From NCBI GenBank assembly GCA_965230905.1, contig OZ246396.1:690001-722000 (forward strand): a DNA stretch of 32,000 nt, given 5' to 3'. The notes beneath the pieces are model-generated. The model was not told the DNA's origin. It ran no database searches and saw only the letters and a program-made list of their open reading frames with translations. A program made the position numbers and the translations under genes. Each line of letters starts with the position of its first letter. Within the stretch, counting starts at the first letter, position 1. Of the stretch, positions 2,036-29,108 are shown in pieces. The DNA is from Candidatus Saccharimonadota bacterium. GTDB lineage: Bacteria > Patescibacteriota > Gracilibacteria > UBA1369 > 2-02-FULL-48-14.

Positions 2036-3937
<1,902 letters not shown>

Positions 3938-3975: not shown

Positions 3976-4002
3976 TTAGCACTCACCATATTAGTGTGCT
4001 AA
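3976..4002. promoter_or_regulatory. CIRCE operator (HrcA binding site) upstream of dnaK
   Basis: TTAGCACTC-ACCATATTA-GTGTGCTAA has one mismatch to the CIRCE consensus TTAGCACTC-N9-GAGTGCTAA. It lies 39 nt upstream of the dnaK ATG, and hrcA is encoded nearby. Confidence 0.85.
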
Positions 4003-4083: not shown

Positions 4084-4971
4084 ATGTCATTACGAACGCT
4101 GGCTCCGCTTGCCCTTGGTACACTTTTAGCTTCTTCTTCGGTGGAGGCGGGGATATCTGAAAAGCCGGGTACCTTTGAGCGTCAGCAGAGTGGGGATTGT
4201 TCCGGGTACCGAACTTTAACTCGTGACATGATTCAGCTGGCCAATGCGCCGGTTGAGGATAGTTTTAAAGACTCTATACAAGCGGAGCTTGTGAAAAGAT
4301 TTCCAGATGGAAATCGACTGCAAATTTATTCGCATCAGGGTGAAATCATTGGGAATGTGGATGGTGCTGATTTTCGGCCGATCGAGTCTGCGGTGTGGAC
4401 TTCTGTTGACACCAGTACCGCTTGCCAAAAGGAGCGTGCAGATTTTAAAAAGCAGGCCGAACTTTTTTTGAGTGAGGCTGTGAGTAAAGCTTCAGTTCCT
4501 GCAACTCCATCTCAAGAGGTCTCTCAAGTGGCACCTGAACCCGTTAGTCCACAAGTTACAGAGTCTAAAAATCCTGCCGCCCGTAAAGCACTGGTAGAAA
4601 TGACTGATATGTTTGGATACGGTCCTTGTAGAGAGGCGCGTCTTTTTTCAGGTGCTTCCATTGTGCAGACGCCGGAAGATGGTAGTTATTGGAAACAAGA
4701 ATTAGCCTTTTTAGCTGGAGGTTTCGAAGTACAAGTGACAGGAGTTACTGATACTTGTCATACAGCTCTTATGACTGCACCTAGTGAATATAGTTCTGCT
4801 GCCTATCAATGGAGTTCTGCTTGCACCTGGGGGTCTAGAAGTATGAAGGGCTTGGATGAAGCTCTGGGCACGCAGGGGACTAGGACTCTCGCGGCGCAAT
4901 GTTTTGATTCTGTGGACAGCAAACGTGCCGTCGTGAAAGACCCCGTTGCTAGTGTGGGCTTCAATTACTGA
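4084..4971 (+). CDS. Secreted hypothetical protein (295 aa), cysteine-containing
   Basis: N-terminal signal peptide MSLRTLAPLALGTLLASSSVEAG. There is a Pro/Ser/Val-rich linker in the middle and several Cys in the C-terminal part. No family recognised. Confidence 0.75.
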   Translation: MSLRTLAPLALGTLLASSSVEAGISEKPGTFERQQSGDCSGYRTLTRDMIQLANAPVEDSFKDSIQAELVKRFPDGNRLQIYSHQGEIIGNVDGADFRPIESAVWTSVDTSTACQKERADFKKQAELFLSEAVSKASVPATPSQEVSQVAPEPVSPQVTESKNPAARKALVEMTDMFGYGPCREARLFSGASIVQTPEDGSYWKQELAFLAGGFEVQVTGVTDTCHTALMTAPSEYSSAAYQWSSACTWGSRSMKGLDEALGTQGTRTLAAQCFDSVDSKRAVVKDPVASVGFNY

Positions 4972-5178
4972 TTTTGCAGTTTTTCAAATAGAAGTTTGCC
5001 TGCGCCAAAATCTTTGCAAACGATTAGCTGTTTGAGGAGGGGTTCCAACTGTTTTCGAACGGGACCATTTTTAGTGAGTTACTTAAGGCGTGATTGTACG
5101 CCAAGCCTTTGTAGGTGCAAGAGAAATTTGCACCAATCGATTTTTAATGTATGATATTTTTTTGCACCATTCTAATCT

Positions 5179-5730
5179 ATGAATAGAACATTAACTGCTG
5201 GATTGCTCGCTTGTGGCATTGCTTTTGAGGCCGGAGCAAAGGGAGTGAAGCAAGGCGACGATATAACGCTTTACACCACTATGGTTCGCGAGATGCTTAT
5301 ATTGACGAATAAAGCGTTGACTGTGGGCTGCCCCGGATTGACTTCAGGCATTGCAAGCAACTTAAAGAGCATCCCTTTCGGGAAAGAGGTTCCGGTTGGA
5401 ATTGAAATTCTGACTCATTATAAAGATCTTTTGAAAAAAGAAATTGTTGGACACACCGTGATAGGATCCGGGGGCATAGAAGAGGCACGCATTGTTTATG
5501 ATATTTCGAATCCGGGAATGCAGTCTTGTTTTCAATTTAGAATTGATATGGTCAATAGTGCCATGAGTGGATTTACGGAAAAGGAGACCTGCAATGTTCA
5601 CGAAGATATTGCGGTTGAGAAGCCACGTTCGGTTTCTGTTTTCGCCTCCTGTGGGCCGCGTGCATTGCCAAATGCCAATTCCGACCGTCACTTTTTTCAT
5701 CATCCTGGCACCACGTCTAGATCGTACTGA
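5179..5730 (+). CDS. Secreted protein or lipoprotein candidate (183 aa)
   Basis: The N-terminus MNRTLTAGLLACGIAFEAG contains a lipobox-like LLAC. There is weak local similarity to the neighbouring 4084 protein (YRTLTRDMIQLAN versus YTTMVREMLILTN). Confidence 0.65.
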   Translation: MNRTLTAGLLACGIAFEAGAKGVKQGDDITLYTTMVREMLILTNKALTVGCPGLTSGIASNLKSIPFGKEVPVGIEILTHYKDLLKKEIVGHTVIGSGGIEEARIVYDISNPGMQSCFQFRIDMVNSAMSGFTEKETCNVHEDIAVEKPRSVSVFASCGPRALPNANSDRHFFHHPGTTSRSY

Positions 5731-5739
5731 CGCCCGCGC

Positions 5740-6222
5740 TTAGCTCCGGCCTACCTGCACTTTCGCGGGGCGAATCGTTTTGCCTTTGAAGGCGTAACCT
5801 TTTTCGAAAATTTGAACTACTTGGCCGGCGGCGCCTTCGCCTTCCATGAGTACTTCGTGTTTATTGGGGTCGGCGGGAATACCGATTTGGTCGATGGATT
5901 CGAGCCCGAGCGCAGCGAGGGCGTTCATTAAATTGCTTTCAATTCCTTGGATGCCTTTTACCCATTCTTCTTCCTCTAAATCTTCGGGGATTATTTCAAA
6001 AGCGCGGGCAAAATTATCGAGCGCGGGGAAGATAGCTTCGAGGAGTCGCATATTGGCGTAGACCTGAATTTCGCCACGTTCTTCTTCGGTGCGGCGTTTG
6101 AAATTCTGCAAATCGGCCATGGCGCGTTTCGCGGTTTCCGTCATCGCCGCGAGCTCGGCTTGTAGGGCTAGCATTGGATCGTCCTGGGTTTGTCCAGCGG
6201 GTGGAGTTGTATCTTCTGTCAT
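5740..6222 (-). CDS. grpE: Nucleotide exchange factor GrpE (160 aa, short form)
   Basis: A coiled-coil N-terminus is followed by the GrpE C-terminal pattern (...NFKRRTEEER..., ...DPNKHEVLMEGEG...YAFKGKTIRPAKVQV). The start overlaps the hrcA stop by 4 nt (ATGA). Confidence 0.9.
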   Translation of the reverse strand: MTEDTTPPAGQTQDDPMLALQAELAAMTETAKRAMADLQNFKRRTEEERGEIQVYANMRLLEAIFPALDNFARAFEIIPEDLEEEEWVKGIQGIESNLMNALAALGLESIDQIGIPADPNKHEVLMEGEGAAGQVVQIFEKGYAFKGKTIRPAKVQVGRS

Positions 6223-6947
6223 AGTTGATTGGTTTCTAAAAGGTTACGAACTTCGGTGAGGATGGAGGAGTTGTACGCGTAGGGCATGCGCTTGGGGCCG
6301 AGGATTCCAATGGCGCCGCGGTAGCCGTCGTAGTCATAGCTTGCAACGATGAGGGAGCAGCTGTCAATTCCTTGCAGAATATTTTCTTCACCGATGAAAA
6401 TTTTGGGTTCTGGGCCAAGTTCTAAATTTCCTAGGCCGGTTAAAAAGTGGTCGCGGTCTTCAATCACTTCCATCACTTGGCTGGCTTTGAGCGGCGATTC
6501 CAAAAATTCCGGCTGGCGGAGCATTTTGGAAAAGCCCATGAAGAAGGTTTTGGTGGAATCGGGAATAGTGGCAAACACCATATTTGGCGTGGCTTGTGAA
6601 AGTAAATTCACCGCATCGTGCACACGTTGTTTGGCGGTTGCGGCGCGACCTTGGTCGCGCAAAGTAGACAGCGTTTTGTGCGCGAGGGCCTTGGCTATTT
6701 CAAAGTCGGCCAGTTCATCCACATAAAAACGGTAGCCTTTATCGGTTGGCACGCGACCAGCCGAGGTATGGGGCTGCATAATGAGCCCCTGGTCTTCCAG
6801 CTCCGCCATATCGTTGCGCACGGTGGCAGGGCTAACTTTAAAATTATAGGTCAAAATGATGGTTTTAGACCCAACGGGCTCCGCCGTCTGTACGAAGTGG
6901 TCAATAATGGCGCTTAAGATCTGGTTTTTTCGATCGTCGGTGTGCAT
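6219..6947 (-). CDS. hrcA: Heat-inducible transcription repressor HrcA (242 aa, unusually short)
   Basis: N-terminal winged helix ILSAIIDHFVQTAEPVGSKTI...SPATVRNDMAELEDQGLIMQPHTSAGRVPTDKGYRFYVDEL. The C-terminal motif IGILGPKRMPYAYNSSIL matches the HrcA C-terminus. The gene order hrcA-grpE also fits. Confidence 0.9.
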   Translation of the reverse strand: MHTDDRKNQILSAIIDHFVQTAEPVGSKTIILTYNFKVSPATVRNDMAELEDQGLIMQPHTSAGRVPTDKGYRFYVDELADFEIAKALAHKTLSTLRDQGRAATAKQRVHDAVNLLSQATPNMVFATIPDSTKTFFMGFSKMLRQPEFLESPLKASQVMEVIEDRDHFLTGLGNLELGPEPKIFIGEENILQGIDSCSLIVASYDYDGYRGAIGILGPKRMPYAYNSSILTEVRNLLETNQL

Positions 6948-6953
6948 ACTTAG

Positions 6954-6982
6954 TTTATAAACGTTCCCGCTTTAAATCTCAA
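6954..6982 (-). promoter_or_regulatory. hrcA promoter, -10 box only 6 nt from the ATG (leaderless candidate)
   Basis: On the minus strand: TTGAGA (6982..6977), a 17-nt spacer, TATAAA (6959..6954), then ctaagt and the ATG (6947). Confidence 0.45.
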
Positions 6983-6990
6983 GTGGGCTC

Positions 6991-7018
6991 TTGCCAGCAG
7001 ATACAATCGTGGTACAAT
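6991..7018 (+). promoter_or_regulatory. Promoter candidate for the large ORF
   Basis: TTGCCA (6991..6996), a 16-nt spacer, then TACAAT (7013..7018). Its position argues for the ATG at 7040 rather than the GTG at 6983 as the start. Confidence 0.45.
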
Positions 7019-7039
7019 TACTTATCTCTTAAACAGGTT

Positions 7040-10000
7040 ATGAACGAAGCCGGACTAGAAGCTGCGGAGTTACTTCTTCAAGAAGGTGCGCTGGCCTTAA
7101 AGCCACGCGCAGAAGAGGGTGTGTCTGATTCTGTTCGGAATCAGACTGGCAGGAGTGTCTTACGTTTGGTTGGTGCGCCACCTACAGCAAAGGAACGTTT
7201 AGATTGCCTCGAGGAGATTGGAAACCCTGCTGACTTTGCTGAACCGGGCAGCGTTTCGTTCCAATTGATGCAAGAAGTCTATGACAATGCTCCTAAAGTG
7301 GCTCGCGAAAAGTTGACGCAGATTTTAGCTAAAGTGGCGCCACTGCACCTTCGCCCGGTGGTGGCGGCTTTGACCAAGGCTATTGAAGAGAAACGGCTTG
7401 ATGGGATGTCTTGGAAGCAGATCACGGATGGAATTAAATTGGAAATTCCGCTCCAAGGGCATGCCATTACGGTTGCGGATATCAACGGGTACACTGCGTG
7501 TTTATTGAAAGGGGAATACCACGAAAAAGTGCAGACGGCCACGGACATAGTTCGTACCTTCAATGAGGTAGCTAAAGCAACGGGTGCGGTTTTGGTGGAA
7601 CCCGTGGAAGGAGATGCGGGGATGTTCCTGACCTTCAATGCGGCTCAGCAGGTAGAGCTGGAATCTGAACTCAAGCGAAAGATTCCGATGAGAATTAAGA
7701 AACTTGAAAAAGAACTTCATGCGGATGGAACCGATAAATATCCGGTGGATCCCGAAACCGGTGAGCGGGTATTTAAGAAAAGTGTGGGAGTGGAAACTTT
7801 GAAGCAGATCCCGGGCGAGTTGAAAATGGTCGTCTATTCAGGAAAAGGGATCGCACAAGGAGCTGTGGTCGTGAGTGGGGAAGCTCGCGATGCTGCCGTT
7901 GAGTATCAGAAAAAAGCGGGTCCTGGGGAAACCCTTAAACAAGACTTGAAGGGATATGACGTAAAAAATCCAGATTGGAATAAGGATCCAGAATTGCCCG
8001 ATACTATCAACGTAGCTGTTAAATTAATTGAGGCACTTTTGAAGGTTAGTCCTTATTCAGCAGCCGCTTTTCAAGACCTCATCCATTCGTCTAAAGATGA
8101 AGGAGCTGAAGTCAGAAGCGCCAAGATGAATGCCTATTATTTGGCGCTTGAACTCAGCCCCGCTCCAGAAGACGATGCGCAAAAAGTGGACGCCTTTTGG
8201 GAGCTCCTGACTCAGGAGGGCACTGGCGATGACCGTATTCGTTTGTTTAAACCGGGTGGAAGTCGAGGTATGCATTTTTGGACGCAAGGAATCACGAGCT
8301 CAAAAGATTTTACGCAGGCCTTTGGGGCTTTCAATCAACGGATCAACCGTTTTGCTACGGAATGTGGACTCACGTTCCGCTTGAGTTTAGGGTACGAAGA
8401 TGCGCTTGAGCTTATTCTACTTCCAGACAGTTTTCAGGTGGATGCCACCGGCCCTTCCATTGTGGCAACGGTTCGTGGAATTGCGGCTTTGGAAGGGAAA
8501 GGGGATGGAAATTGGATCAGTGTGGATCGTAGCGCGGTAACGGCTATGGGTCTGGTTGGAATGGAAATGACCACCATTTATATCAAGGGGACTCCGTATC
8601 AGACGGTGCAAGGTCGCTTGGAGCCGGATGGGAAATGGGAGCTGCGAGAAAGTTTAGTTGGACGCGAAAAACAAGAGGCTGAAATAAATAGCTTTATAGC
8701 CTCCTTGGGTTTGAATGGAGTGGCACTGCGAGTGCATAAGCCTGCAAATGCAAAGGATTCCGGGTATGGAGAATCTGCGTTGCTTCGTGCTGCCGAACGT
8801 GCGGCTTCAGGTAAAGGCATTCAGGTTGTTCAATTGAAAAATAAAGAGACCTTGTTTGATGACCTTGAAGCCCAATTGGGTTATAGCTGTGAGGAACTTA
8901 TTAATAATCCTCAACTCTTAACTCGTCAGGTGCTTTTGACTTTGGATGAAGATTCTTTTAGCCCCGACTTAGCGGCTCGGCTCGACCGCTTCCTCTTTGC
9001 CATGGCGGGCACGCCTCTTGGAATTATTTACACTGGAGCCTATCAGTTCCGTCCAGAGGCCTTTATGGGAGATGCCTACAGCGGGAAAGAGCTCAGCAAA
9101 GACATTGAGGTGGATGCTCTTAGCACTGAAGCTGCTTTGGATCTTATTTTTAAAGCCCGTCCCGATTTGAAACCACAGGATCGTCCACTCATCGCTCAAT
9201 TGCTTGCAGAGTGGGGCAAGCCGCTGGTTCCACGCGCCTTGATTCGTAATTTTGCCCAGGCTTTGTTTGAGCAAGGAGACGGATGGGAACTCAAGCCGGC
9301 CCTATTGGAACAAGCCCATGCCGGAGCCTTGGATTATGCTTTGGAAGCTGCTGGTTTGAATGAAACGGATCGCACGGTTTTGGGTGTGGTTGCCGAAATA
9401 GGGTATGGAGTGCCGCTTGAATTTATACAAAATGTGCTTGGCTTTGATTGCGCTGAAGCGCTCGGTCATTTGCTGGATGAGGCTCATCCTTTCTTGGTAT
9501 TAGAAGGGGGACTTTATTCCGTTCGCGAATCGTCCAGCCGACAGGCACGGCTCTTGGCACGAAAATATCAGCCAGCCGTACATGCAGAACTCCAAAAACG
9601 CGGATTTTTGAGAGAAGATCCCGTTGTGGATGAGCAAAGTTTGGATCGAAGTATGCTTGAGTTGGAACACGCGTTGGCGCACGTTGAATCGTGTAAATCG
9701 CCTCGTACCCTTTTGCTCATGGCGCGCTTGGGACATTACTATTTGAAGGAAAGAAAAAACTTTGGCGCCGCGTACGGCCTGTACCACCGCTTCTTGGAAG
9801 CGTGTGAAGGGCATGAGCTAGATTTGGGCGGACTGCCGGAAGATTTGCTGCATGATTTGGTGTGGGCACTTTTGGAAACGTCGCACGAAAAGGACACGAA
9901 GTGGGCACAGCTTTTAATTAAAGCTCATTCTGAAGTGTCTACCCCTGAACTCATGTGGAGAGAGAAAATGAGGCTGTTGAGGCTTACGCCCAATAAAGAT

Positions 10001-11005
10001 TTAGATGATGTGCCTGAAGGAGATGCTTATAGTGCGATTGTGGCCCAGATCCGTGAGGCTTCTGAACGTTTGAATGCAAAGGGAATCACTCTACATGCTG
10101 AACTTATAAAAGACATTCAGTCTTTAGCTGCTTTCACTAAGTCCGCCCAGATGGCGAGTGAGGCAGATTCTTCGCAGGAAGTCTTGTCTCTTGCCTTTGC
10201 TGGGGCAGCGCTTTCCAGGCTTTCTTGTGCGGCTCGGCAATTGGTGCGGCTGGCAAAACTAGTCGAAAAGAAACTGCCAGAAGAGCTTGAGTTTGCTCGT
10301 GATCTTCGAGCGGCTGGATCTAGTGCTGAGTTCGACACACAAAGACGTTTGCTCTCTTTGGGAATCAATCTAGCTGGCCTGGATGCAACTTCTGGATTGG
10401 ATCAAGAGCTTATGGCAGAAATTCTCCGCTGTCTTTTAGATACTTATAAATACCTAGCGTCCACTCCAAGTGCTGAAGAGATGAATGTGATCAACCGTTA
10501 TCATGATCGTGCTGCTAAATCCTTCTCTAAATTGGAACGGCCCGTTCAGTATGCCGCCCTAGATGCATTTGATGTACAAGCTAATGCATTTGCCTTGCAC
10601 TGGCAAAGAAAATTACCTTTACCAGGAATTTTTCCAGGTGAAATAGAGTCCACGGCAACTAGTGAAGATAAAGCTGTTGTTTGGGAAGTCTTAAGTGATT
10701 TTGAAACAAAAGTACGCGTTCAATTGAATCATGCTATTCGTAATGCGCTTGTGCCGATGCGTCACCGTTTGACGCATCAACTTATGAATTTCATTCAATT
10801 AAAGATGCGCCTTCTCAAAAGAACTTTTCATGAAAATGATCGACAGTTAGTCGAAAGCTTGGATGATGAATATTTATTGCTTGCACAAGATTCTGCGCGT
10901 GTTTGTTTGCTTTTCACCGGAGAGACACAGGATGATTATTATGCATTAGAATGTGCTCCAATTAAGAAAGCCGTGGATCAAATATCCACGGCCTCTCAAG
11001 TTTAA
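7040..11005 (+). CDS. Large (1321 aa) cyclase-like / AAA_16 STAND-like / helical-repeat protein with a degenerate P-loop
   Basis: The long ORF is uninterrupted. An alternative GTG start at 6983 would overlap both divergent promoters. The motifs HAITVADINGYT...EGDAGMFLTF follow the class III cyclase pattern. LVGREKQEAEINSF, then KDSGYGES at the P-loop position, then VLLTLDEDSFSPDLAARLDRFL follow the AAA_16 pattern. The C-terminal ~550 aa are helix-rich. The domain calls come from motif reading only. Confidence 0.9.
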   Translation: MNEAGLEAAELLLQEGALALKPRAEEGVSDSVRNQTGRSVLRLVGAPPTAKERLDCLEEIGNPADFAEPGSVSFQLMQEVYDNAPKVAREKLTQILAKVAPLHLRPVVAALTKAIEEKRLDGMSWKQITDGIKLEIPLQGHAITVADINGYTACLLKGEYHEKVQTATDIVRTFNEVAKATGAVLVEPVEGDAGMFLTFNAAQQVELESELKRKIPMRIKKLEKELHADGTDKYPVDPETGERVFKKSVGVETLKQIPGELKMVVYSGKGIAQGAVVVSGEARDAAVEYQKKAGPGETLKQDLKGYDVKNPDWNKDPELPDTINVAVKLIEALLKVSPYSAAAFQDLIHSSKDEGAEVRSAKMNAYYLALELSPAPEDDAQKVDAFWELLTQEGTGDDRIRLFKPGGSRGMHFWTQGITSSKDFTQAFGAFNQRINRFATECGLTFRLSLGYEDALELILLPDSFQVDATGPSIVATVRGIAALEGKGDGNWISVDRSAVTAMGLVGMEMTTIYIKGTPYQTVQGRLEPDGKWELRESLVGREKQEAEINSFIASLGLNGVALRVHKPANAKDSGYGESALLRAAERAASGKGIQVVQLKNKETLFDDLEAQLGYSCEELINNPQLLTRQVLLTLDEDSFSPDLAARLDRFLFAMAGTPLGIIYTGAYQFRPEAFMGDAYSGKELSKDIEVDALSTEAALDLIFKARPDLKPQDRPLIAQLLAEWGKPLVPRALIRNFAQALFEQGDGWELKPALLEQAHAGALDYALEAAGLNETDRTVLGVVAEIGYGVPLEFIQNVLGFDCAEALGHLLDEAHPFLVLEGGLYSVRESSSRQARLLARKYQPAVHAELQKRGFLREDPVVDEQSLDRSMLELEHALAHVESCKSPRTLLLMARLGHYYLKERKNFGAAYGLYHRFLEACEGHELDLGGLPEDLLHDLVWALLETSHEKDTKWAQLLIKAHSEVSTPELMWREKMRLLRLTPNKDLDDVPEGDAYSAIVAQIREASERLNAKGITLHAELIKDIQSLAAFTKSAQMASEADSSQEVLSLAFAGAALSRLSCAARQLVRLAKLVEKKLPEELEFARDLRAAGSSAEFDTQRRLLSLGINLAGLDATSGLDQELMAEILRCLLDTYKYLASTPSAEEMNVINRYHDRAAKSFSKLERPVQYAALDAFDVQANAFALHWQRKLPLPGIFPGEIESTATSEDKAVVWEVLSDFETKVRVQLNHAIRNALVPMRHRLTHQLMNFIQLKMRLLKRTFHENDRQLVESLDDEYLLLAQDSARVCLLFTGETQDDYYALECAPIKKAVDQISTASQV

Positions 11006-11016
11006 TTGTGCAATTT

Positions 11017-11223
11017 TTAGTTGCGAGTTTCAATCACACCGGTGCTTGTTTCCGTAGGAGCAACGGTTTCTATTGTCTTAGTATTTGTTCGTAGTTTAAA
11101 AATACTGGTTTGAGTATTTGCGCTAACGAACCAGAGCAGACCTACGGCGAGGGCTCCAAGGAGCACACCGGCGATAAGGGCCTTTTTGTCTTTAACCCAG
11201 ACGCGGGCTGATGTTCTTTTCAT
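11017..11223 (-). CDS. Small membrane protein (68 aa)
   Basis: A single TM segment (ALIAGVLLGALAVGLLWFV) follows a basic N-terminus. The gene has its own promoter candidate upstream. Confidence 0.5.
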   Translation of the reverse strand: MKRTSARVWVKDKKALIAGVLLGALAVGLLWFVSANTQTSIFKLRTNTKTIETVAPTETSTGVIETRN

Positions 11224-11258
11224 TTTTATTTTGATTAGAAAATAAAAGAAATCATCTA

Positions 11259-11287
11259 ACTATACCACAAAACGGTTAGTCTGGCAA
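11259..11287 (-). promoter_or_regulatory. Promoter candidate for ORF 11017..11223
   Basis: On the minus strand: TTGCCA (11287..11282), a 17-nt spacer, then TATAGT (11264..11259). Confidence 0.45.
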
Positions 11288-11306
11288 GCGTCATGAGTTG
11301 GAAGCT

Positions 11307-12326
11307 TTATTCTTTCGTCGCCATGTAGGCGGCTAGGTCGATGCAGCGGCAGGAGTAGCCCCATTCGTTGTCGTACCAAGCAAAGACTTTCACCAGGCGG
11401 CCGCCTTGTACCTTGGTTTCGAGTGAGTCGAAGATGCTGGAACGCGCGTCGCCTCGGTAATCGGAAGAGACAAGGGGAAGGTCGGAGTAGCCGAGGAAGC
11501 CTTTAAGCGGTTCTGTTTCGGAAGCTGCTTTCATGGCTGCGTTAACACTTTCAACGGTGGCGTCTTTTTTTACTTGCACGGTGAGGTCTACAATGGAAAC
11601 CACGGCGGTTGGTACGCGCACCGCAATGCCGTTCATCTTACCTTCCAGGGAAGGAATCACCAGGCTGATGGCCTTGGCGGCACCTGTTGAGGTGGGCAGC
11701 ATGTTGAGGGCGGCGGCACGGGCACGGCGCATATCTTTGTGGTCGTTGTCGTGAAGGTTTTGGTCGTTGGTATAAGAGTGAATAGTGGTCATGAGCCCGT
11801 ATTCGATTCCAAAAGTTTCTTCCAAAACCTTGGCCACCGGCGCGAGGCCGTTGGTGGTGCAGCTTCCGTTGGAAACAATAAAATGTTTAGCGGGGTCGTA
11901 TTCGTTTTCGTTCACGCCCATCACAAAAGTGTGGTCGATTTCATCTTTGGCGGGTGCGGAAATCATCACGCGTTTTGCTCCTGCTTTAATGTGTTTGCCG
12001 GCTCCTTCACGGCTGGTGAACGCGCCGGTACATTCAATCACTAGGTCGATGTTCAGGTCTTTCCAAGGCAAAAGCTCTGGGTCGCGGTTTTGTACGAGTT
12101 GCACCACGGTCACGGTACCGTCGGGGCGGGTGATAGTAAGTTTGCCGGCTTCTCCTTTAATGTCCATGGGCAAGGTGCCGTAGCTGGAATCGTACTTTAA
12201 CAGGTGCGCGGTTTGTGCGGGGTCGCCCAAATCGTTCACGGCCACGATATCAATCTTTGGGTTCATTAAATTAGCTCGAAAGACCATGCGTCCAATTCGT
12301 CCAAATCCATTGATGGCAACTCGCAT
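11307..12326 (-). CDS. gap: Glyceraldehyde-3-phosphate dehydrogenase (339 aa)
   Basis: The N-terminal Rossmann motif INGFGRIGR, the active site SNGSCTTNGLAP and the C-terminal WYDNEWGYS are all present. Confidence 0.97.
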   Translation of the reverse strand: MRVAINGFGRIGRMVFRANLMNPKIDIVAVNDLGDPAQTAHLLKYDSSYGTLPMDIKGEAGKLTITRPDGTVTVVQLVQNRDPELLPWKDLNIDLVIECTGAFTSREGAGKHIKAGAKRVMISAPAKDEIDHTFVMGVNENEYDPAKHFIVSNGSCTTNGLAPVAKVLEETFGIEYGLMTTIHSYTNDQNLHDNDHKDMRRARAAALNMLPTSTGAAKAISLVIPSLEGKMNGIAVRVPTAVVSIVDLTVQVKKDATVESVNAAMKAASETEPLKGFLGYSDLPLVSSDYRGDARSSIFDSLETKVQGGRLVKVFAWYDNEWGYSCRCIDLAAYMATKE

Positions 12327-12349
12327 TGGGAAGGGGTTATTCGCGCTTC

Positions 12350-12377
12350 AGTATAATGAAATTTTTTCGGCTTTCAA
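12350..12377 (-). promoter_or_regulatory. gap promoter candidate
   Basis: On the minus strand: TTGAAA (12377..12372), a 16-nt spacer, then TATACT (12355..12350). The ~23-nt leader has no SD. Confidence 0.45.
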
Positions 12378-13640
12378 CTAGTACTCTAGCAATCCCGGCG
12401 TTTCGCCGCGATGTTGTTGGGCAGGGCTCATGTAGTCGGAGAGCAGCCATTTGGTTTCCACGGTTCCGTCGGGGTGAGTGATCAGGTATTTCCACGCGAT
12501 TTGCCCGATGCCCAGCGGCGCGCCCACGCCGGCTTTCACCTCGTCGGTTTGATTGGCGCCGGTGTAAGGACCGTAGAGCTCGGTGCTGCGTCCGTCGTCT
12601 TCGCCATAAAAACGAATCACGGCTTCTTTAAAGCCCTCTTCCTGCGTCACCATGAGCATGTAGTTGGGCGTGTTGTTCACGAATTTAAAGTCCTGTTCGC
12701 CGGGGAAAATAGTTGCGTCGAGTCCATCGCCGAAGTGCTGATAATAGATCACATAGAGGCTGTGGCTGCGGTGCTCGCTGATTTCCAAGCCCGCGTTGAG
12801 TGCGGCGCGGTAAATGGTGGTGGAAACTTGGCAAACTCCGCCGGCGGGAGTGGGCTCCAGCTGCGTTCCTTTAAAAATAGCGGTGGCTTGTTTCCAGCCC
12901 GCGTACTCAATTTCGCCCAAAAATTCTACATAAGAAAACTCGCCGCCCGGAGGAATTAGGATTCCGTTGAACCGTTCGTTGAGCGCCTTTCTAATATTGA
13001 ACTCGCGTTCGGGTGAGGAACCCCAAAATGAGGATTTCCCTTCTGTTAATAGGTCCAGTGGGCCGAGGTCGAGGCCGGTTTGGTTGATGATTTTTCCTTC
13101 TACCTTGCGCAGCACTCCTTGCGTTGTAGTTTCACTGCGGGCGAGGGCGCCGATGATCATTTCTTTCGTGAGTGCGGGCACGAGTTCACGTCCATCTTTA
13201 AGCACGCCTTCCAAAGTCACGCGGCTGGTTTTAGTGGCGTCCGCTTCCAGGAGTGTGATGTCGGTTTCGGGGTCGCGTACGGCTTCGGCCACGGTGCCGA
13301 GCATGTAATCCATGAACTCCGGCGTGAAGCTGAGTTTGCTTTCATCCGCCGTTTGCTCCAGGCTTAAATCTTTGAGTTGCGCGGGGAAGGGGTAAGCTAT
13401 GCCATCCACCTCAATTGTAAAACCTTCGGTGGTGAGCAGGGCGATTAGATTTTGGTGCTCGGCTAAATCTTCGTCTGTAAAAGGGCTTATTTTTGCATCG
13501 GCCGCCAAAATGCTGGCGTATGAGTTGCCCATATCCGACAATGAATAAGAACTCGCCGGACCTTGGCTTAGGATAATAAGGAGGAGAAGGCTTGTGCCTC
13601 CCAAAACAATGCGGGTTTTCATGTGGCGAATAGTGAGCAC
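12378..13640 (-). CDS. VanW-domain protein with N-terminal signal/anchor (420 aa)
   Basis: GGVCQVSTTIYRAALNAGLEISEHRSHS is the VanW core motif. The N-terminal hydrophobic segment is RIVLGGTSLLLLIILS. Confidence 0.85.
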   Translation of the reverse strand: MLTIRHMKTRIVLGGTSLLLLIILSQGPASSYSLSDMGNSYASILAADAKISPFTDEDLAEHQNLIALLTTEGFTIEVDGIAYPFPAQLKDLSLEQTADESKLSFTPEFMDYMLGTVAEAVRDPETDITLLEADATKTSRVTLEGVLKDGRELVPALTKEMIIGALARSETTTQGVLRKVEGKIINQTGLDLGPLDLLTEGKSSFWGSSPEREFNIRKALNERFNGILIPPGGEFSYVEFLGEIEYAGWKQATAIFKGTQLEPTPAGGVCQVSTTIYRAALNAGLEISEHRSHSLYVIYYQHFGDGLDATIFPGEQDFKFVNNTPNYMLMVTQEEGFKEAVIRFYGEDDGRSTELYGPYTGANQTDEVKAGVGAPLGIGQIAWKYLITHPDGTVETKWLLSDYMSPAQQHRGETPGLLEY

Positions 13641-13690
13641 ACCCTAAGATACTTTTGAGTGGGGTGCAAGCTGTTGACACAAAATGAGCG

Positions 13691-16354: not shown

Positions 16355-18475
16355 ATGTTTCCACCTCTTGGGCCATCTTCTCTTGTACCAACTACTGTAC
16401 CAACTACGCCAGACCAGCGCGTAGATGCCGTTATGGCTCAAGTTCCACCTTTTGAGGAAGCGATTCTAAGGTCGGACTTTGTTCAAGTTTTTGAAGGAAA
16501 AGAAGCCGATCTTGCTCTAAGAGGAGTAGTGCTTCAAGATACTTTGCGTGGCTATATCCGAGAGCTTGCTGCTACAGCAGCTCTGGAGGAAGCCGCTCCA
16601 GGGAGAGAGTCTCTTGATTTAGCGGTAGGAGAATTTGAAAGTGCTCTCGCTGGTTTTTTGGCTCAGCTTCGGGTCAAGTTTGCTTCTGTTCAACAAGGCC
16701 CCATTTCACAGGCTTTAGGGAATGTAAACGTAGGGACCAGTGACTTACAAGCGATTATACTTGAAGCTTTAAGCTATAAGAAGCCGGATGCTCTTATTGA
16801 AGAATATATTGCTGCACTTAAAGCGCCCCACCTTTCATTAATGGCTAAGGCGGGATGCCCAGACTTGCCTGCGCCGGCTCCGCATGATGCTGCAAGTCTC
16901 AAAACTCAGTTAGTGGATTATTTTGTGGCGTCGGCTAAAGAAGCCTATACCATTGCTCGTGAAAAACTTCGTGAATATCTTTTGAATAAGGAGCAGGAAG
17001 CTGAACGTGCAGAGCTGGCAGCACATGCTTTAAAACGAGTTCCTGGAAAAACAGTAGAACTGATGGATTCAATAATGGTGAATTCACTGGATAGACGTAC
17101 TTATGCGGATCAAGAAAAGGCCTTGTTTATTACGTTTGGATCAGTCCTTAGAGATCTCACTGGAAAGCAATTTGGCCCAAAACTGCAGGCTGAGTTCGGC
17201 GTAGCTCTTGCCGAGGGATTCACTCCACCTGGTAAATTGACCTCACGAATTCGAAACGCCGAGGGATTGATTGATGTTTACCGAGGACAAGCCAGCAATG
17301 GATTTATTAGTATGAAGCTGGCAGAGATCCAATTTGATAAGGAGGAGGCCTTAATGCTTTGTGCTCAAGAATATATCCAATGGGTGAATGGGAAGGCAGC
17401 GCAAATATTCACCATCCCTGAAGAAACCGACCCTTCAGAAGCCGAGCTTTATGATGTAGCTCGAGTAAATGTCGTTGATAAATTCTTTGAAGTTGCTACT
17501 CAGCATGCGGATAAACAATTTGCTAAGGCTTTAAGCTTATTGACGCCTAGCTTGCCCTCCGTAGTTGTTCCTTTGCTGGCTCACCGAGTGCAGGAAACGC
17601 TAGCTCAATTTGTTGATAAGCAGCCCGTTTCTGCGACTTCAGTTCAGGCTCAGTATACGCCAGATATGAATCTTACTACTGACGCAGAAGCGATTGTGGA
17701 TGCATTCTTAGCCAAGGCTCCTCTTTTGCTCGCTAAGTTGGAGAATCCTGCTCAGCTGTATCTGGATTTATTTGCGGCTTTGGTGAGGGAGGGAAAGATG
17801 GATCGTGAGCCTGCAGCACTAGTTGCAAGACAAATAATGGACATGCTCTTCGGAAAACCTGAAGGAAAAAGAGAAACGGTAATGAGCCTTGGGCGATACT
17901 CTTTGACCCGTTCACCTAAAGTTCCTAAGGCACCTAAGGTTCCTCCAGTTCCTCCCGCTCCTAGTAAACCTAAGCCGACTTCTCGTAAGCCGATTTCTAG
18001 AAATTGGCTTGCTGGAGGGCTTGCGGTCGGTTTAGCAGGAGTTGCTGCAGCTGGAGTGGCTTATAATTGGTCCTCTCCTGAGGTAGAGGAAGTTCCCGTT
18101 GAATCTCCAGAGGTTCCCGTGACTCCTACTCAATGGGGATCTTTGAATCCTGAGGCATATCCGACCTTTGAGAATACTACTATGCAGTGGTTTGTGGATT
18201 TATCCAAGCAGAATCCCGAGCAAGATGTCGGCCAAGGGGCCATTGCGATTCAATGTGTGGGTGGAGAAAATAAGGCTAGCTCTACGAGTCCGGCTCAAGC
18301 TCACAGTTTCACGGTACTGAGTGATGCCGTGACCGACGAAGGCACCATCAATTGGATCGTAGAGGGTTGCCAGGTGAAGGGTTTTAAACCTTTTACTCCA
18401 GGTGCCTGCGTTGCTGACGTGTGTGCCCTCAATGAAGGATTCTATGCGGTCGCTTTGACTCCTGAGCAGAACTAA
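16355..18475 (+). CDS. Large bitopic hypothetical protein (706 aa): ~545-aa helical cytoplasmic part, PK-rich linker, one TM, Cys-containing outer domain
   Basis: Long ORF with its own promoter. The TM segment is WLAGGLAVGLAGVAAAGVAY, near residue 560. The C-terminal ~130 aa contain 4 Cys. No family recognised. Confidence 0.85.
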   Translation: MFPPLGPSSLVPTTVPTTPDQRVDAVMAQVPPFEEAILRSDFVQVFEGKEADLALRGVVLQDTLRGYIRELAATAALEEAAPGRESLDLAVGEFESALAGFLAQLRVKFASVQQGPISQALGNVNVGTSDLQAIILEALSYKKPDALIEEYIAALKAPHLSLMAKAGCPDLPAPAPHDAASLKTQLVDYFVASAKEAYTIAREKLREYLLNKEQEAERAELAAHALKRVPGKTVELMDSIMVNSLDRRTYADQEKALFITFGSVLRDLTGKQFGPKLQAEFGVALAEGFTPPGKLTSRIRNAEGLIDVYRGQASNGFISMKLAEIQFDKEEALMLCAQEYIQWVNGKAAQIFTIPEETDPSEAELYDVARVNVVDKFFEVATQHADKQFAKALSLLTPSLPSVVVPLLAHRVQETLAQFVDKQPVSATSVQAQYTPDMNLTTDAEAIVDAFLAKAPLLLAKLENPAQLYLDLFAALVREGKMDREPAALVARQIMDMLFGKPEGKRETVMSLGRYSLTRSPKVPKAPKVPPVPPAPSKPKPTSRKPISRNWLAGGLAVGLAGVAAAGVAYNWSSPEVEEVPVESPEVPVTPTQWGSLNPEAYPTFENTTMQWFVDLSKQNPEQDVGQGAIAIQCVGGENKASSTSPAQAHSFTVLSDAVTDEGTINWIVEGCQVKGFKPFTPGACVADVCALNEGFYAVALTPEQN
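17915..17977 (+). repeat. Seven tandem 9-nt units encoding P-x-x tripeptides (PKV PKA PKV PPV PPA PSK PKP)
   Basis: CCTAAAGTT CCTAAGGCA CCTAAGGTT CCTCCAGTT CCTCCCGCT CCTAGTAAA CCTAAGCCG lies just upstream of the TM-coding segment of ORF 16355..18475. Confidence 0.8.
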
Positions 18476-26717: not shown

Positions 26718-27116
26718 TTAATTGTTTTGTACTGCTCTGATTGCTGCTTGTGTTGCGCGAACAACTGGACCAATTTCTTTAAATATTTCATCAAGTCTTA
26801 CTCTTTTTGCTTGGATACCTGGGTGTGCAAAGGCAGCTGCGAGTGAAATTATCTCATCGTCGGCAAGCCCCTCTACGGGTTCACGAGCTACCTTATAGAA
26901 TTCAGCTGCGGCTGATACAAGAGCAGTTACTCTTTCTTGATCAAAGTAGGGATTGTTGACTACATGTTCATCCAGCCATCGGAAGACTTGATCTGAATCT
27001 TGTGCATGTGGTGAGAGGAGAGGATTGAGTGCATTGTGTCCGAGAATTAGTTTCGGGTCCTCTAACGCTCCAGCTATGAGCGCAAGACCATCTGCGATTA
27101 AACTTTTGCCTTCCAT
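26718..27116 (-). CDS. Hypothetical protein (132 aa), first gene of the low-G+C island
   Basis: Helical-looking ORF with no recognisable family. Confidence 0.6.
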   Translation of the reverse strand: MEGKSLIADGLALIAGALEDPKLILGHNALNPLLSPHAQDSDQVFRWLDEHVVNNPYFDQERVTALVSAAAEFYKVAREPVEGLADDEIISLAAAFAHPGIQAKRVRLDEIFKEIGPVVRATQAAIRAVQNN

Positions 27117-27203
27117 GCTTATTTGTTACACCCAAAAAGTATACAGATTGTTTTGTTCCATACAATGTCCAAGGCTGTACGATGTTTTTGCTTGTTACAA
27201 TTT

Positions 27204-27223
27204 CGCACTATGCGAATAGTGCG
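27204..27223. repeat. Perfect 8-bp stem with a GCGA tetraloop
   Basis: CGCACTAT-GCGA-ATAGTGCG lies between two minus-strand genes, 28 nt downstream of the stop of 27251..27526. No U-tract follows on the minus strand. Confidence 0.6.
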
Positions 27224-27250
27224 TGTTATGTGATGTATTTTTGCGGCTAT

Positions 27251-27526
27251 TTATTTACCAAACATTCTTACTCTAATTCCTTCAGCTTCTTCTGCAAGTT
27301 TTTGCCATTCTTGTGTATTACTTGGCGGGTTTTTATCAGCCAGGACAGATAGCTGGCAAACAGTGTTAGGATCGAATTCTCCAAACGCTTCTCGAAATTT
27401 CCCCCGTGTCATACCAGTTTTAATGTGGATAAATTCAATACTGTTTGCAGCGGCTACAGCTTCCAGATCTTCTCTGCTTGCAAACCGCCTTGCTGTATCT
27501 GCTAATTGGCGAATTTTATCTAACAT
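27251..27526 (-). CDS. Hypothetical protein (91 aa)
   Basis: ORF with a strong promoter directly upstream. No family recognised. Confidence 0.6.
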   Translation of the reverse strand: MLDKIRQLADTARRFASREDLEAVAAANSIEFIHIKTGMTRGKFREAFGEFDPNTVCQLSVLADKNPPSNTQEWQKLAEEAEGIRVRMFGK

Positions 27527-27534
27527 AGAATACT

Positions 27535-27562
27535 ATATTAGCAAAAACTTGCATTTTGTCAA
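27535..27562 (-). promoter_or_regulatory. Promoter for ORF 27251..27526, -10 box 8 nt from the ATG (leaderless candidate)
   Basis: On the minus strand: TTGACA (27562..27557), a 16-nt spacer, TAATAT (27540..27535), then agtattct and the ATG (27526). Confidence 0.5.
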
Positions 27563-27806
27563 GGTCTGCCGCAAAAATATAGCATATAATTCGTTCATAT
27601 GCTAAACGGCGAGGGCTCGATCTATCATCTTGGCCACATCTCTTAACTTAGTGTTTTTTGACTTGTCGAAAATAGCTATACAGTGAGCTCTCACTGCTTC
27701 GCTGAGATCACTTGGGGTGCCGCTTCATCTTCAGCGACTAGAATTTTGCTGGCCATATTGCAAAGGGTTGGAAAAGTAATGTTTATGCATTTTCTTGGCC
27801 GTCGTC

Positions 27807-27833
27807 CGGAACGTTAGCAGAAGTTGCGCTGAC
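27807..27833. repeat. Left copy of the ~27-nt inverted repeat bracketing ORF 27835..28410
   Basis: CGGAACGTTAGCAGAAGTTGCGCTGAC. The inner 14 nt, GAAGTTGCGCTGAC (27820..27833), are perfectly repeated in reverse complement at 28457..28470. Confidence 0.75.
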
Positions 27834-27834
27834 G

Positions 27835-28410
27835 TTATTCCACTACCTTTACTTGAGCAAAATGTGAATAACAATCTGGAGCTCCTCTGCCTCCAGTGTA
27901 TAGGTATCGTTCGAGCTCGACTGTTATTGGATTTTCAGAGCTAGAATTCAGAATTGTTTCTGATTCTTCTAAGGAATTGGTGTATTTTTGCATGCCGAAT
28001 TCGTTGGAATCATTCATGCGCCATAAAATATCCTCTTCGATACATCCCAATCCAATGCTCGTTTCTCCTACAAAAGAATTTCCTCTTTGCTCCTCGATGT
28101 AATCATCAAGGAATTCATTGTCGGTGTTTAATACATTGAAGAAAGTATATGTATAGATTGGACAATTTTCTTCACAAAAAGCTTCTGGTCTTTCCTCGAA
28201 AGTAAGATAACCATTAACTACAAGTTTGCCGTAGTATGCGTAATTGTCCTCGTCATAGTGAAAGTTGTCTGTTGCTGATTTTTCTTCGTTATCAGCACGA
28301 ATGCTTTCATTGTCATCCAGCAAAGAGGAAATCCTGTTTTCTTGCCAAAAGTAAACCGAAATACCAACCGCGACGCAGACAACGAGAACGATACCTAATT
28401 TGTTATTCAT
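27835..28410 (-). CDS. Membrane-anchored or secreted hypothetical protein (191 aa from the ATG at 28410), low G+C
   Basis: MNNKLGIVLVVCVAVGISVYFW is a signal anchor. An acidic, Asn/Tyr-rich domain with 4 Cys follows. The 29-codon extension in the ORF track (start at 28497) covers the inverted repeat and is probably not coding. Confidence 0.7.
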   Translation of the reverse strand: MNNKLGIVLVVCVAVGISVYFWQENRISSLLDDNESIRADNEEKSATDNFHYDEDNYAYYGKLVVNGYLTFEERPEAFCEENCPIYTYTFFNVLNTDNEFLDDYIEEQRGNSFVGETSIGLGCIEEDILWRMNDSNEFGMQKYTNSLEESETILNSSSENPITVELERYLYTGGRGAPDCYSHFAQVKVVE

Positions 28411-28456
28411 ACTTCGTTTATTAGTTGAATAAATTGTACACAACTGCAAATCAGAA

Positions 28457-28483
28457 GTCAGCGCAACTTCAACTAAGTTTCCG
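28457..28483. repeat. Right copy of the inverted repeat bracketing ORF 27835..28410
   Basis: GTCAGCGCAACTTCAACTAAGTTTCCG is the reverse complement of the left copy with 23 of 27 matches, and the inner 14 nt are perfect. Confidence 0.75.
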
Positions 28484-28525
28484 CTTTTGTTGGCCATATT
28501 TCAATAGCTTTGTCGAAAACTTTCG

Positions 28526-28969
28526 CTATGGCCCAACTTTTCTTTGAAGGTAAAGGCGCGGCTCTCCATCCCCAAAATAATTGTCCTTCCACCCCGTGAT
28601 ACAAAAATCAAAATGTAAATATATCAATATCGCCGGAGTATTCCCCGGATGAACAACTAATGAACAGTTTTTGTTGCCGATTTCATCTAATAGTTTGTTC
28701 ATGGCTAAACTGGCAATACCCTGTCCACGATATTCTGGCATAACGGTAAGGCCGTTGACTAAAACGGCTCCATCGTCTTGGTTTTTATACGAGATAGTAC
28801 CGATGGCTTTATTGCCATTAATAATGGCATATACTTGGCTTTCCCCAATATACTTTTTATAGCCTTCCTCGCCGTCACAAGGTGCGAACATATCACTTGC
28901 TGCACCTTCCTCCAAAGATCGTGCTAGTTCCCAGTCATCAATAGTTATTTTTTTGAATTCAATATCCAT
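28526..28969 (-). CDS. GNAT-family N-acetyltransferase (147 aa from the ATG at 28969)
   Basis: LVNGLTVMPEYRGQGIASLAMNKLLDEI is the acetyl-CoA binding motif (R/Q-x-x-G-x-G/A). The size is typical of GNAT proteins. The start is chosen at MDIEFKKITIDD. Confidence 0.8.
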   Translation of the reverse strand: MDIEFKKITIDDWELARSLEEGAASDMFAPCDGEEGYKKYIGESQVYAIINGNKAIGTISYKNQDDGAVLVNGLTVMPEYRGQGIASLAMNKLLDEIGNKNCSLVVHPGNTPAILIYLHFDFCITGWKDNYFGDGEPRLYLQRKVGP

Positions 28970-29108
28970 ATTTGGGTTCTCAATTTCGTATAGAAAACAG
29001 ATATTAGTAGTATAGGTGAACTTAGTGGAAAAAGCATTGTGCAAAACTTTCGCGAAATTTGCAGCGATTTCAGGAATTTGTCAGGAAAATTCTGTTAGGG
29101 TGATTGTT

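Follow-up and report, generated by a model that had tools for sequence, protein, structure and literature searches.

A long plus-strand gene of Peribacteria-type genomes encodes a predicted tandem cyclase with a degenerate STAND-like module and occurs as deeply divergent, exchanged alleles

The window analysed here, a stretch of 32,000 nucleotides of contig OZ246396.1 (positions 690,001 to 722,000), comes from the 1.3-Mb genome of a groundwater bacterium, and the subject of this work is a single long plus-strand open reading frame (ORF) in it that stops at 11005 and can start either at a GTG at 6983 (1340 codons) or at an ATG at 7040 (1321 codons). We confirmed that the ORF is real: it stands alone, divergent from hrcA, as an earlier note on this sequence had described it, and contains all the sequence strings quoted there. 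The ATG at 7040 is the likely start, since a promoter-like site lies within the GTG extension, both promoter hexamers and the ATG are kept in five related loci, and the identical deposited protein is 1321 amino acids long. Residues are therefore numbered from that ATG; the numbers in the earlier note, which counted from the GTG, are 19 higher. On one side of the gene lie the divergently transcribed hrcA-grpE, with dnaK beyond, and on the other a 68-amino-acid ORF, gap, a VanW-like gene, tsaC and rsmH. The gene and the parts of its product are listed below, with the ratio of nonsynonymous to synonymous substitution rates given as dN/dS for whole genes and as omega for domains.

6991..7018, plus strand: promoter-like site TTGCCA-16-TGgTACAAT (10 of 12 matches, TG present), within the GTG-6983 extension.
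7040..11005, plus strand: the gene, 1321 codons plus TAA, with full-length homologues and a dN/dS of 0.14-0.15.
7040..7414, plus strand: N-terminal region, of which residues 1-45 are predicted to be disordered (predicted local distance difference test, pLDDT, <50) and 46-125 helical (helices 50-120); fast-evolving, omega 0.22-0.44.
7415..7954, plus strand: predicted first cyclase homology domain (CHD1), C1-like, residues ~126-305, with D147 (7478-7480) and D192 (7613-7615), from the AlphaFold model and Foldseek.
7955..8104, plus strand: poorly conserved helical linker, residues ~306-355 (helices 323-336 and 341-348; 352-359 of low confidence).
8105..8629, plus strand: predicted second cyclase homology domain (CHD2), C2-like, residues ~356-530, without the metal-binding Asp; R399/K404 (8234-8251), D468...V475...R479 (8441-8476) and K516 (8585-8587).
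8645..9139, plus strand: STAND-like nucleotide-binding domain (NBD), residues ~536-700, with LVGRE, the Walker A segment KDSGYGESA (8753-8779) and the Walker B-like VLLTLDE (8930-8950).
9140..9619, plus strand: helical and winged-helix domains, residues ~701-860, with helices followed by helix-helix-helix-strand-strand (model residues 255-308); omega 0.06-0.12, the lowest in the protein.
9620..11002, plus strand: C-terminal all-alpha solenoid, residues ~861-1321, with helices only and TPR/solenoid matches in Foldseek; presumed sensor, omega ~0.2.

The earlier note had called the protein an orphan, and at the profile level this is correct. When we searched Pfam, NCBIfam and PADLOC and, by sequence and by profile, the PDB with the protein and its relatives, nothing meaningful was found, in Pfam even at E<=10. 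At that threshold the Guanylate_cyc profile PF00211 matched neither the protein nor nine close and eight distant members, and the Pfam profiles for STAND NTPases (AAA_16, NB-ARC and NACHT) also gave no match, so that the Pfam check proposed in the note came back empty; no PADLOC model scored above noise in the seven members tested. Relatives were found by other means. A search of a 5.8-billion-protein database retrieved eight full-length homologues with 37-75% identity. A profile of these close homologues added no member from a word-indexed database, and when 1.84 billion representatives were searched exhaustively with HMMER, 14 proteins matched the family profile. About 19 full-length members are now known, and all those that can be placed lie in Candidatus Peribacteria-type gene contexts. 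Only two carriers were found in a scan of GTDB genomes, both of them metagenome-assembled genomes (MAGs) of Candidatus Peribacteria (phylum Peregrinibacteriota), and two scans of JGI metagenomes, one with C-terminal and then one with N-terminal patterns, yielded no further loci. In one related locus (L002, P0006) the gene is called as a 76-amino-acid ORF (9777-10007) followed by a 1228-amino-acid ORF (10001-13687) without the N-terminus, a split that reflects either a frameshift or a faulty assembly of the 5′ end. We found no literature on cyclases in Peregrinibacteria.

Among the nine close sequences D147, N149, T152, G191-D192-A193, Q466-G471, I474, V475, V478 and R479 are invariant, as are G575, G577, S579, A580, V631-L633 and D636. 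Because the motif residues do not vary across close homologues, the strings that first suggested a cyclase and an ATPase are not chance matches. The three modules that had been read from the sequence (class III cyclase-like, AAA_16/STAND-like and helical repeats) found their support in predicted structures and Foldseek rather than in Pfam. We built AlphaFold2 models from 9-sequence alignments, which are shallow, for an N half (residues 1-560) and a C half (residues 521-1321).

The N-half model (pLDDT 78.3; predicted template-modelling score, pTM, 0.78) has two complete beta-alpha-beta-beta-alpha-beta domains joined by a helical linker, that is, the fold of a cyclase homology domain occurs twice in the predicted structure. 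The stretch at ~465-516 in the earlier numbering, which had been taken for a further half-domain, is part of the complete second domain. The extra N-terminal region, ~160 residues in the earlier numbering, is composed of the disordered tail and the helical region (~46-125) listed above. Foldseek gave 95 matches to the PDB at E<=0.001 for this half, and the 50 listed were all cyclases or cyclase-like. The best of them cover both domains, over ~490-530 columns of single-chain C1-C2 cores, with template-modelling (TM) scores of 0.5-0.6: the best match was the soluble domain of adenylyl cyclase (AC) 9 (7pdf_A, E 3.5e-12, TM normalised to the target 0.60), and human soluble adenylyl cyclase (sAC) 4oyz followed at 8e-12, with ~25 other sAC entries among the matches listed, down to ~1e-9. 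The Pseudomonas aeruginosa protein 6yii was matched over 495 columns (E 1.9e-8), and the single bacterial CHDs of CyaC and Cya2 at ~1e-5, covering one domain only. In a viral structure library cyclase-domain proteins also rank first, and the first GGDEF match has an E of 0.14. The N half is predicted by these models to be a tandem of two cyclase homology domains, arranged in the manner of the pseudo-heterodimer seen in sAC and in membrane cyclases.

For the residues of the putative active site, equivalences rest on secondary-structure register and profile alignments, with the CHD sequences of Cya2, CyaB and CyaC taken from PDB alignments. The two candidate metal-binding Asp that had been picked out, 45 residues apart, are D147 and the D192 of a GD pair, and both are present in 19 of 19 family members, down to ~20% identity. 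They align with the metal-binding Asp of Cya2, CyaB and CyaC and with D47/D99 of ADCY10, the sAC gene product. Both belong to CHD1 and are absent from CHD2, as expected of a C2-like domain. With hhalign, CHD1 aligned to the three bacterial CHDs over 142 columns in the expected register, including helix alpha4 (P 0.037), and CHD1 aligned to CHD2 with a P of 0.11. In CHD2, nearly all of the 19 members keep R479 and the KG that includes K516; of the N-x-x-x-R pair on helix alpha4 the Arg is there and the Asn is not. D468, three residues ahead of G471, is D or E in most members; its equivalent in sAC is T405, and mammalian AC carries Asp at this position. CHD1 has D284 and E288 where the Asn and Arg would be. 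Judging by these residues, the pair appears to resemble sAC in having a single catalytic-type site beside a degenerate one. Where sAC binds bicarbonate through K95 and R176, the aligned positions are P188 (invariant) and V287 (variable), and control by bicarbonate is therefore not expected.

The C-half model (pLDDT 87.3, pTM 0.83) shows an alpha/beta core of the P-loop-NTPase type, a helical domain, a winged helix and then helices to the last residue, which is the order of NBD, helical domain, winged helix and C-terminal repeats that is found in STAND proteins. A check by AlphaFold and Foldseek had been proposed, and its outcome agreed with the proposal in both halves: as cyclases top the list for the N half, STAND/NLR proteins come first for the C half, led by the Pyrococcus horikoshii STAND-TPR protein 6mfv (7.4e-7), SAMD9 (2.8e-5) and the plant NLR RPP1 (7.5e-5), with AAA+ proteins such as FtsH, ORC, DnaA and Bcs1 lower down. 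Of the AAA_16 pattern with a P-loop that the note had seen here, then, the STAND-type fold held and the P-loop did not. Instead of GxxxxGK[ST] the Walker A segment reads KDSGYGES, with Glu578 in the place of the Lys and the first Gly also gone; E578 aligns with the Lys of GYGKS in ADCY10, and the position is E, T, V or I, and never Lys, in every member aligned there. Of the Walker B, D636 is present in all but one aligned member, and the next residue is E in some and A/T/R/Q/S/L/V/G in the others. The alignments indicate a STAND fold whose hydrolytic motifs have been lost across the whole family and for which hydrolysis of nucleoside triphosphate (NTP) in the usual way would be impossible. The note had recognised no terminal helix-turn-helix (HTH), and we likewise obtained no HTH profile match, the C-terminus being all-helical to the last residue in the model.

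The known protein whose plan comes closest to ours is full-length sAC, described as C1 and C2 together with a predicted STAND domain that contains a P-loop (PMC12802110). The order of the modules along the chain is shared (C1, C2, STAND, helical region), as the models show; the sAC core is among the best structural matches; and in both proteins one of two pseudo-symmetric sites would be the catalytic one. For the sequence comparison we used an ADCY10 profile of 20 vertebrate orthologues, and a human query that agreed with PDB 4oya over residues 1-469 apart from one mismatch. The alignment of the 19-member family with this profile runs from family residues 124-592 to sAC residues 26-546, that is, through the P-loop, and pairs G471-x-x-I474-V475-x-x-x-R479 with G408-x-x-V411-N412-x-x-x-R416, the IKG of K516 with MKG, LVGRE with LLGRxKE and GYGES with GYGKS. 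ADCY10 orthologues are annotated with PF00211 plus PF13191; the human sequence, confirmed against the PDB as far as residue 469, reached only sub-threshold scores with NB-ARC and AAA_16. There are differences too: sequence similarity is marginal, sAC has Asn412 where Val475 stands here, and the Walker A Lys is present in sAC but absent here. Our protein is moreover bacterial, ~300 amino acids shorter and hypervariable among strains.

The earlier note had compared the layout with the large actinobacterial cyclase-ATPase regulators. Those of the Rv0386, Rv1358 and Rv2488c type have a class III cyclase domain, an AAA_16/STAND NTPase, helical repeats and a LuxR-type HTH, with a single CHD that needs homodimerisation and with an intact P-loop. 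The order cyclase, NTPase, repeats is shared, but our protein has two predicted CHDs and lacks both the Walker A Lys and an HTH, and the C1-C2 tandem of ADCY10 is closer than this single-domain type. STAND-repeat proteins such as 6mfv, RPP1 and SAMD9 share the NBD, helical domain, winged helix and repeats, whereas our protein lacks the Walker A Lys and a conserved second Walker B acid, has no Pfam match and carries a tandem cyclase as its putative effector. A bacterial parallel for the cyclase head is 6yii, deposited as 'adenylyl cyclase-like ATP-binding protein'; it is PaPycC, a pyrimidine cyclase of Pycsar clade A in which one cyclase domain directly follows another (PMC11224242). Both proteins thus carry class III cyclase domains as a consecutive pair in a single bacterial chain, and the history of 6yii indicates that the substrate of a divergent tandem cyclase can be an unexpected one. 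PycC, however, lacks the STAND and solenoid parts and acts together with a neighbouring gene for an effector with a receptor of cyclic nucleotide monophosphates (cNMP). No such pair of a PycC-model match and an adjacent PycTM/PycTIR effector was found at our locus, where the neighbours are hrcA, the 68-amino-acid ORF, gap and VanW. We filed the family as a very divergent new variant of the cyclase-STAND kind, and not as a member of PF00211, AAA_16 or ADCY10, because every profile fails while the fold, the domain order and most catalytic positions agree.

In the Peribacteria clade the gene belongs to the core genome and is present once. Comparison of related loci with the window showed that its alleles are old and deeply divergent and that close relatives exchange them, the breakpoints lying at the gene edges. 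Identities to the window in the following lines are at the protein level, the product of the gene being called the big protein.

L006/L008: hrcA 98.8%, gap 96.2%, big protein 78% (residues 1-726) and 69% (residues 727-1319).
L003: hrcA not available, gap 95.0%, big protein 37%.
L013: hrcA 88.8%, gap 83.5%, big protein 39%.
L015: hrcA 87.2%, gap 76.8%, big protein 49%.
L001: hrcA 78.1%, gap 77.7%, big protein 53%.
7049..11077, no strand assigned: cassette replaced relative to L003, inside which only ~100 nt at 70% identity is detectable.

Between the window and L003 the flanking DNA is 89% identical over 6456-7048 and 83% over 11078-13656, and the proteins of the flanks are 95.0% (gap), 93.6% (tsaC) and 84% (VanW) identical. 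By the Nei-Gojobori method dN is 0.65 and dS saturated at 3.8 for the big gene, against a dN of 0.03-0.10 and a dS of 0.7-1.2 for the flanks. The arrangement of L003 is also present on the L004 contig from a second sample, and this agreement between contigs from two samples excludes an assembly artefact. L001 against L002/L005 is a second case, independent of the first: the flanks are 88-92% identical in nucleotides and hrcA 97% in amino acids, whereas the big gene shows no similarity in DNA and its proteins are 43-44% identical. In the Peribacteria MAG loci L006/L008, on the other hand, the gene is collinear with that of the window at 78-83% nucleotide identity and is the same allele. Within this allele its dN/dS of 0.14-0.15 compares with 0.016-0.084 for hrcA, grpE, gap and VanW, and omega is ~0.1 in CHD1, CHD2 and the NBD and ~0.2 in the solenoid. 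The gene is functional and under purifying selection, as the low omega in both CHDs and the NBD attests. Protein identity is best kept in CHD2 and the NBD in most comparisons, and usually least in the N-terminal tail, the linker and the solenoid.

Recombination may not be confined to the gene edges. The last ~230 codons (~10310-11002) are saturated at synonymous sites relative to L008 (proportion of synonymous differences, pS, 0.78), the rest of the gene having a dS of ~0.9-1.1, and since this saturation occurs within the same allele class it hints at a further breakpoint inside the C-terminal solenoid. The flanks of L015 are mosaic, with an hrcA nearer to the window (87%, against 76% to L001) and a gap nearer to L001 (83%, against 77% to the window), and because of this mosaic structure recombination seems to be frequent across the whole region.

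The surroundings of the gene are those of a housekeeping region. The same neighbourhood (gap, VanW, tsaC or hrcA adjoining) was found in all 12 related loci that were recovered with flanks. In the core subfamily the gene points away from hrcA-grpE and towards a small membrane ORF and gap, and the very distant members adjoin tsaC or abut gap directly. No defence genes, mobile elements, tRNAs or Rfam RNAs were found near the gene, and the 32-kb window as a whole has no tRNA gene and no Rfam match. The small convergent ORF of the window is the following.

11017..11223, minus strand: convergent ORF of 68 amino acids, with one predicted membrane helix, C-terminal (V)IET repeats and no family match.

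An ORF of this kind, 64-82 amino acids long, is present in nearly all related loci, and in several of them its 3′ end overlaps that of the big gene. We considered it as a specificity partner of the big protein and rejected the idea because it follows the flanks and not the big-gene allele: it is 85% identical between the window and L003, although the big proteins are only 37% identical. Control of the big gene by HrcA was also considered and rejected. A near-perfect CIRCE operator (TTAGCACTC-N9-GTGTGCTAA, one mismatch, none expected by chance) lies at 3976-4002, just upstream of dnaK (2036-3937, minus strand), and none was found before hrcA-grpE, before the big gene or in the intergenic region between hrcA and the gene. 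With the only CIRCE upstream of dnaK, it is dnaK that appears from the sequence to be the HrcA-controlled unit of the window.

On balance we favour the reading that the gene encodes a cytoplasmic, sensor-gated nucleotide cyclase of three modules, built on the plan of full-length sAC and diversified in the manner of NLRs. Packed head to tail, the two CHDs of one chain would build a single composite active site, to which CHD1 would contribute the metal-binding D147 and D192, and CHD2 would contribute R479, the triphosphate-binding K516, D468 as the acidic residue at the base-recognition position, and K404 or R399. The mirror-image site, being degenerate, may bind a regulator. As output we consider it most likely that an NTP is converted to a cyclic nucleotide in a metal-dependent reaction; turnover would perhaps be slow or modest, as we propose because the ribose-contacting Asn is Val. 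We infer that the C-terminal helical solenoid recognises the input, and that the STAND switch, probably a scaffold for conformational change or oligomerisation that hydrolyses no NTP, relays between the solenoid and the cyclase head. The fold, the Asp pair found in every member, the retained Arg and Lys, and the selective constraint that acts strongly on both CHDs speak for real metal-triphosphate chemistry. Plant NLR genes and fungal het genes are highly polymorphic and evolve fastest at their sensor end; by analogy with NLR-type receptors, the swapping of divergent alleles as a cassette suggests that the target sensed by the solenoid evolves fast.

Several observations weigh against this reading. 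The Asn position of the transition-state pair is V475, Val in nearly every member and Asn in none, and mutation of this Asn in a mammalian cyclase lowers the turnover number (kcat) 30-100 fold. Of the base-specifying pair, Lys/Asp for ATP or Glu/Cys for GTP, the basic residue is ambiguous here, being K404 by the K-x-x-x-D spacing and the CHD1/CHD2 alignment and R399 by the ADCY10 alignment. In the conservation check that had been proposed, the two Asp came through. The sequence comparisons are weak: all the profile and sequence libraries named above were silent, CHD2 was undetected by hhalign against the three bacterial CHDs, and the alignment with the ADCY10 profile has a P of 9.6e-4 and a probability of 22% over 428 collinear columns (P 0.17 against the single human sequence). 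The five N-half models span a pLDDT of 47 to 78. No cNMP-binding receptor or phosphodiesterase was seen in the 32-kb window or the related loci, and we know of no characterised mode of action for a STAND module without the Walker A Lys.

Another reading is a double pseudo-enzyme, whose cyclase pair would do no more than bind a nucleotide or metabolite as a sensor, whose STAND module would be an inert scaffold and which would act via binding partners instead of making a messenger. The Val in place of Asn in nearly all members, the Walker A Lys that is absent in all, the second Walker B acid that is not conserved, the failure of either domain to match any profile, the lack of a receptor or phosphodiesterase gene nearby and the missing bicarbonate residues of sAC all point that way. 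We nevertheless regard this explanation as doubtful, for the two metal Asp in 19 of 19 members and R479 and K516 in nearly all are hard to explain without metal-triphosphate chemistry, and omega is ~0.1 in both CHDs. Moreover, 6yii went from a deposition as an ATP-binding protein to being treated as the pyrimidine cyclase PaPycC (PMC11224242), and from its history it follows that missing canonical activity can mean that the wrong substrate was tried. A different anatomy had been proposed in the earlier note, with an insertion inside the cyclase-like part; taken so, the protein would have one cyclase domain of the actinobacterial Rv0386 type interrupted by an insertion of ~250 amino acids. The first-half motif strings of CHD1 and the second-half strings of CHD2 could indeed be read so from sequence alone. 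There is no such insertion, however, in the model, which has two complete domains, each with a full set of strands and helices; residues 261-300, which had been called the second half of the fold, complete CHD1, the C1-C2 tandem matches span ~510 columns with TM 0.5-0.6, and there is no C-terminal HTH. The interrupted domain is hardly tenable.

An immune-like or partner-recognition role is, by analogy, a serious possibility, and its most specific form would be a dedicated anti-phage protein, with an Avs/NLR-like STAND sensor and a Pycsar-like cyclase effector that act by abortive infection. A STAND and repeat sensor fused to an effector is the layout of NLR and Avs proteins, the fold matches RPP1 and SAMD9, old alleles are swapped as a cassette, and the solenoid is among the least conserved parts; the tandem CHD also resembles the clade A PycC 6yii (PMC11224242). 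We think a dedicated anti-phage function unlikely all the same. PADLOC found nothing in any of seven members, no PycTM/PycTIR-type effector gene is adjacent, and the 68-amino-acid ORF could not accommodate a cNMP-binding domain, nor does it co-vary with the allele. The gene is a core single-copy locus in a housekeeping neighbourhood, and not an island, in every related locus with flanks. The loss of the Walker A Lys would be unexpected for a STAND receptor, since known STAND receptors depend on nucleotide binding. Very unlikely, in our view, is a housekeeping regulator tied to its neighbours, that is, to heat shock and proteostasis (hrcA-grpE-dnaK) or to glycolysis (gap). It is suggested by the position of the gene in the core subfamily, divergent from hrcA and convergent with gap, and there is a precedent in Mycobacterium tuberculosis, where cAMP controls the dnaK operon (PMC3938503). 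Adjacency says little, though, because gene order in the clade is conserved generally, and distant members adjoin tsaC and not hrcA. The sole CIRCE lies upstream of dnaK and not between hrcA and the gene, and a cassette-like replacement of alleles is not expected of such a regulator. The co-purification of Hsp70 with overexpressed full-length sAC was considered as a link to dnaK and rejected, as the authors attribute it to overexpression.

The sensor-gated cyclase that we favour can also be drawn more boldly, and this we offer as a tentative possibility: a bacterial NLR-like receptor of a type not seen before, encoded once in the core genome, with an sAC-like tandem cyclase as effector and a non-hydrolysing STAND module, whose ancient alleles would be held by balancing or frequency-dependent selection and swapped as a cassette among closely related Peribacteria, and which would sense a fast-evolving phage or host or partner factor in an episymbiotic lineage with minimal genomes and answer with a second messenger, possibly a non-canonical one. 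A gene of 4 kb is expensive to keep in a genome of 1.3 Mb, and it is under purifying selection, yet it exists in versions only 37-44% identical where the flank genes are 95-97% identical. Cassette-like turnover with a variable sensor is typical of recognition and immunity genes such as NLRs; in the literature we found no earlier description of such an allele replacement in a cyclase. Whatever its input, this is a cyclase-STAND family that was missed by every profile library we tried and was revealed by structure prediction alone, and cyclic-nucleotide signalling in candidate-phyla bacteria may therefore be under-counted. For mammalian sAC, whose STAND region still has no known function and for whose full-length form no specific regulator has been identified (PMC12802110), this compact bacterial analogue, its P-loop naturally 'dead', also offers a tractable comparison.

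Some further features of the region were noticed along the way. A second variable spot lies between dnaK and grpE (4084-5730 in the window, 3258-4163 in L001 and 703-2694 in L006). In the window it holds two plus-strand ORFs with N-terminal signal peptides and no family match, of 295 (4084-4971) and 183 amino acids (5179-5730), and in relatives an unrelated gene of ~300 amino acids on the opposite strand, with a lipoprotein-like signal and a GFSMGG motif (BLASTP against the window ORF, E 0.84). Downstream of rsmH a plus-strand ORF of 706 amino acids (16355-18475) has no Pfam or NCBIfam match, and at the corresponding position L001 has a 739-amino-acid ORF, likewise without a Pfam match. At 27001-29000 the GC content falls to 0.39-0.41, against ~0.48-0.52 elsewhere in the window, and this stretch contains a minus-strand ORF of 220 amino acids (27835-28497) without a Pfam match. 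HrcA itself (6219-6947, minus strand) has 242 amino acids, against a model of 338 positions of which it matches positions 1-128 best; in relatives it has 241-244 amino acids, and the shortened form looks like one typical of the clade.

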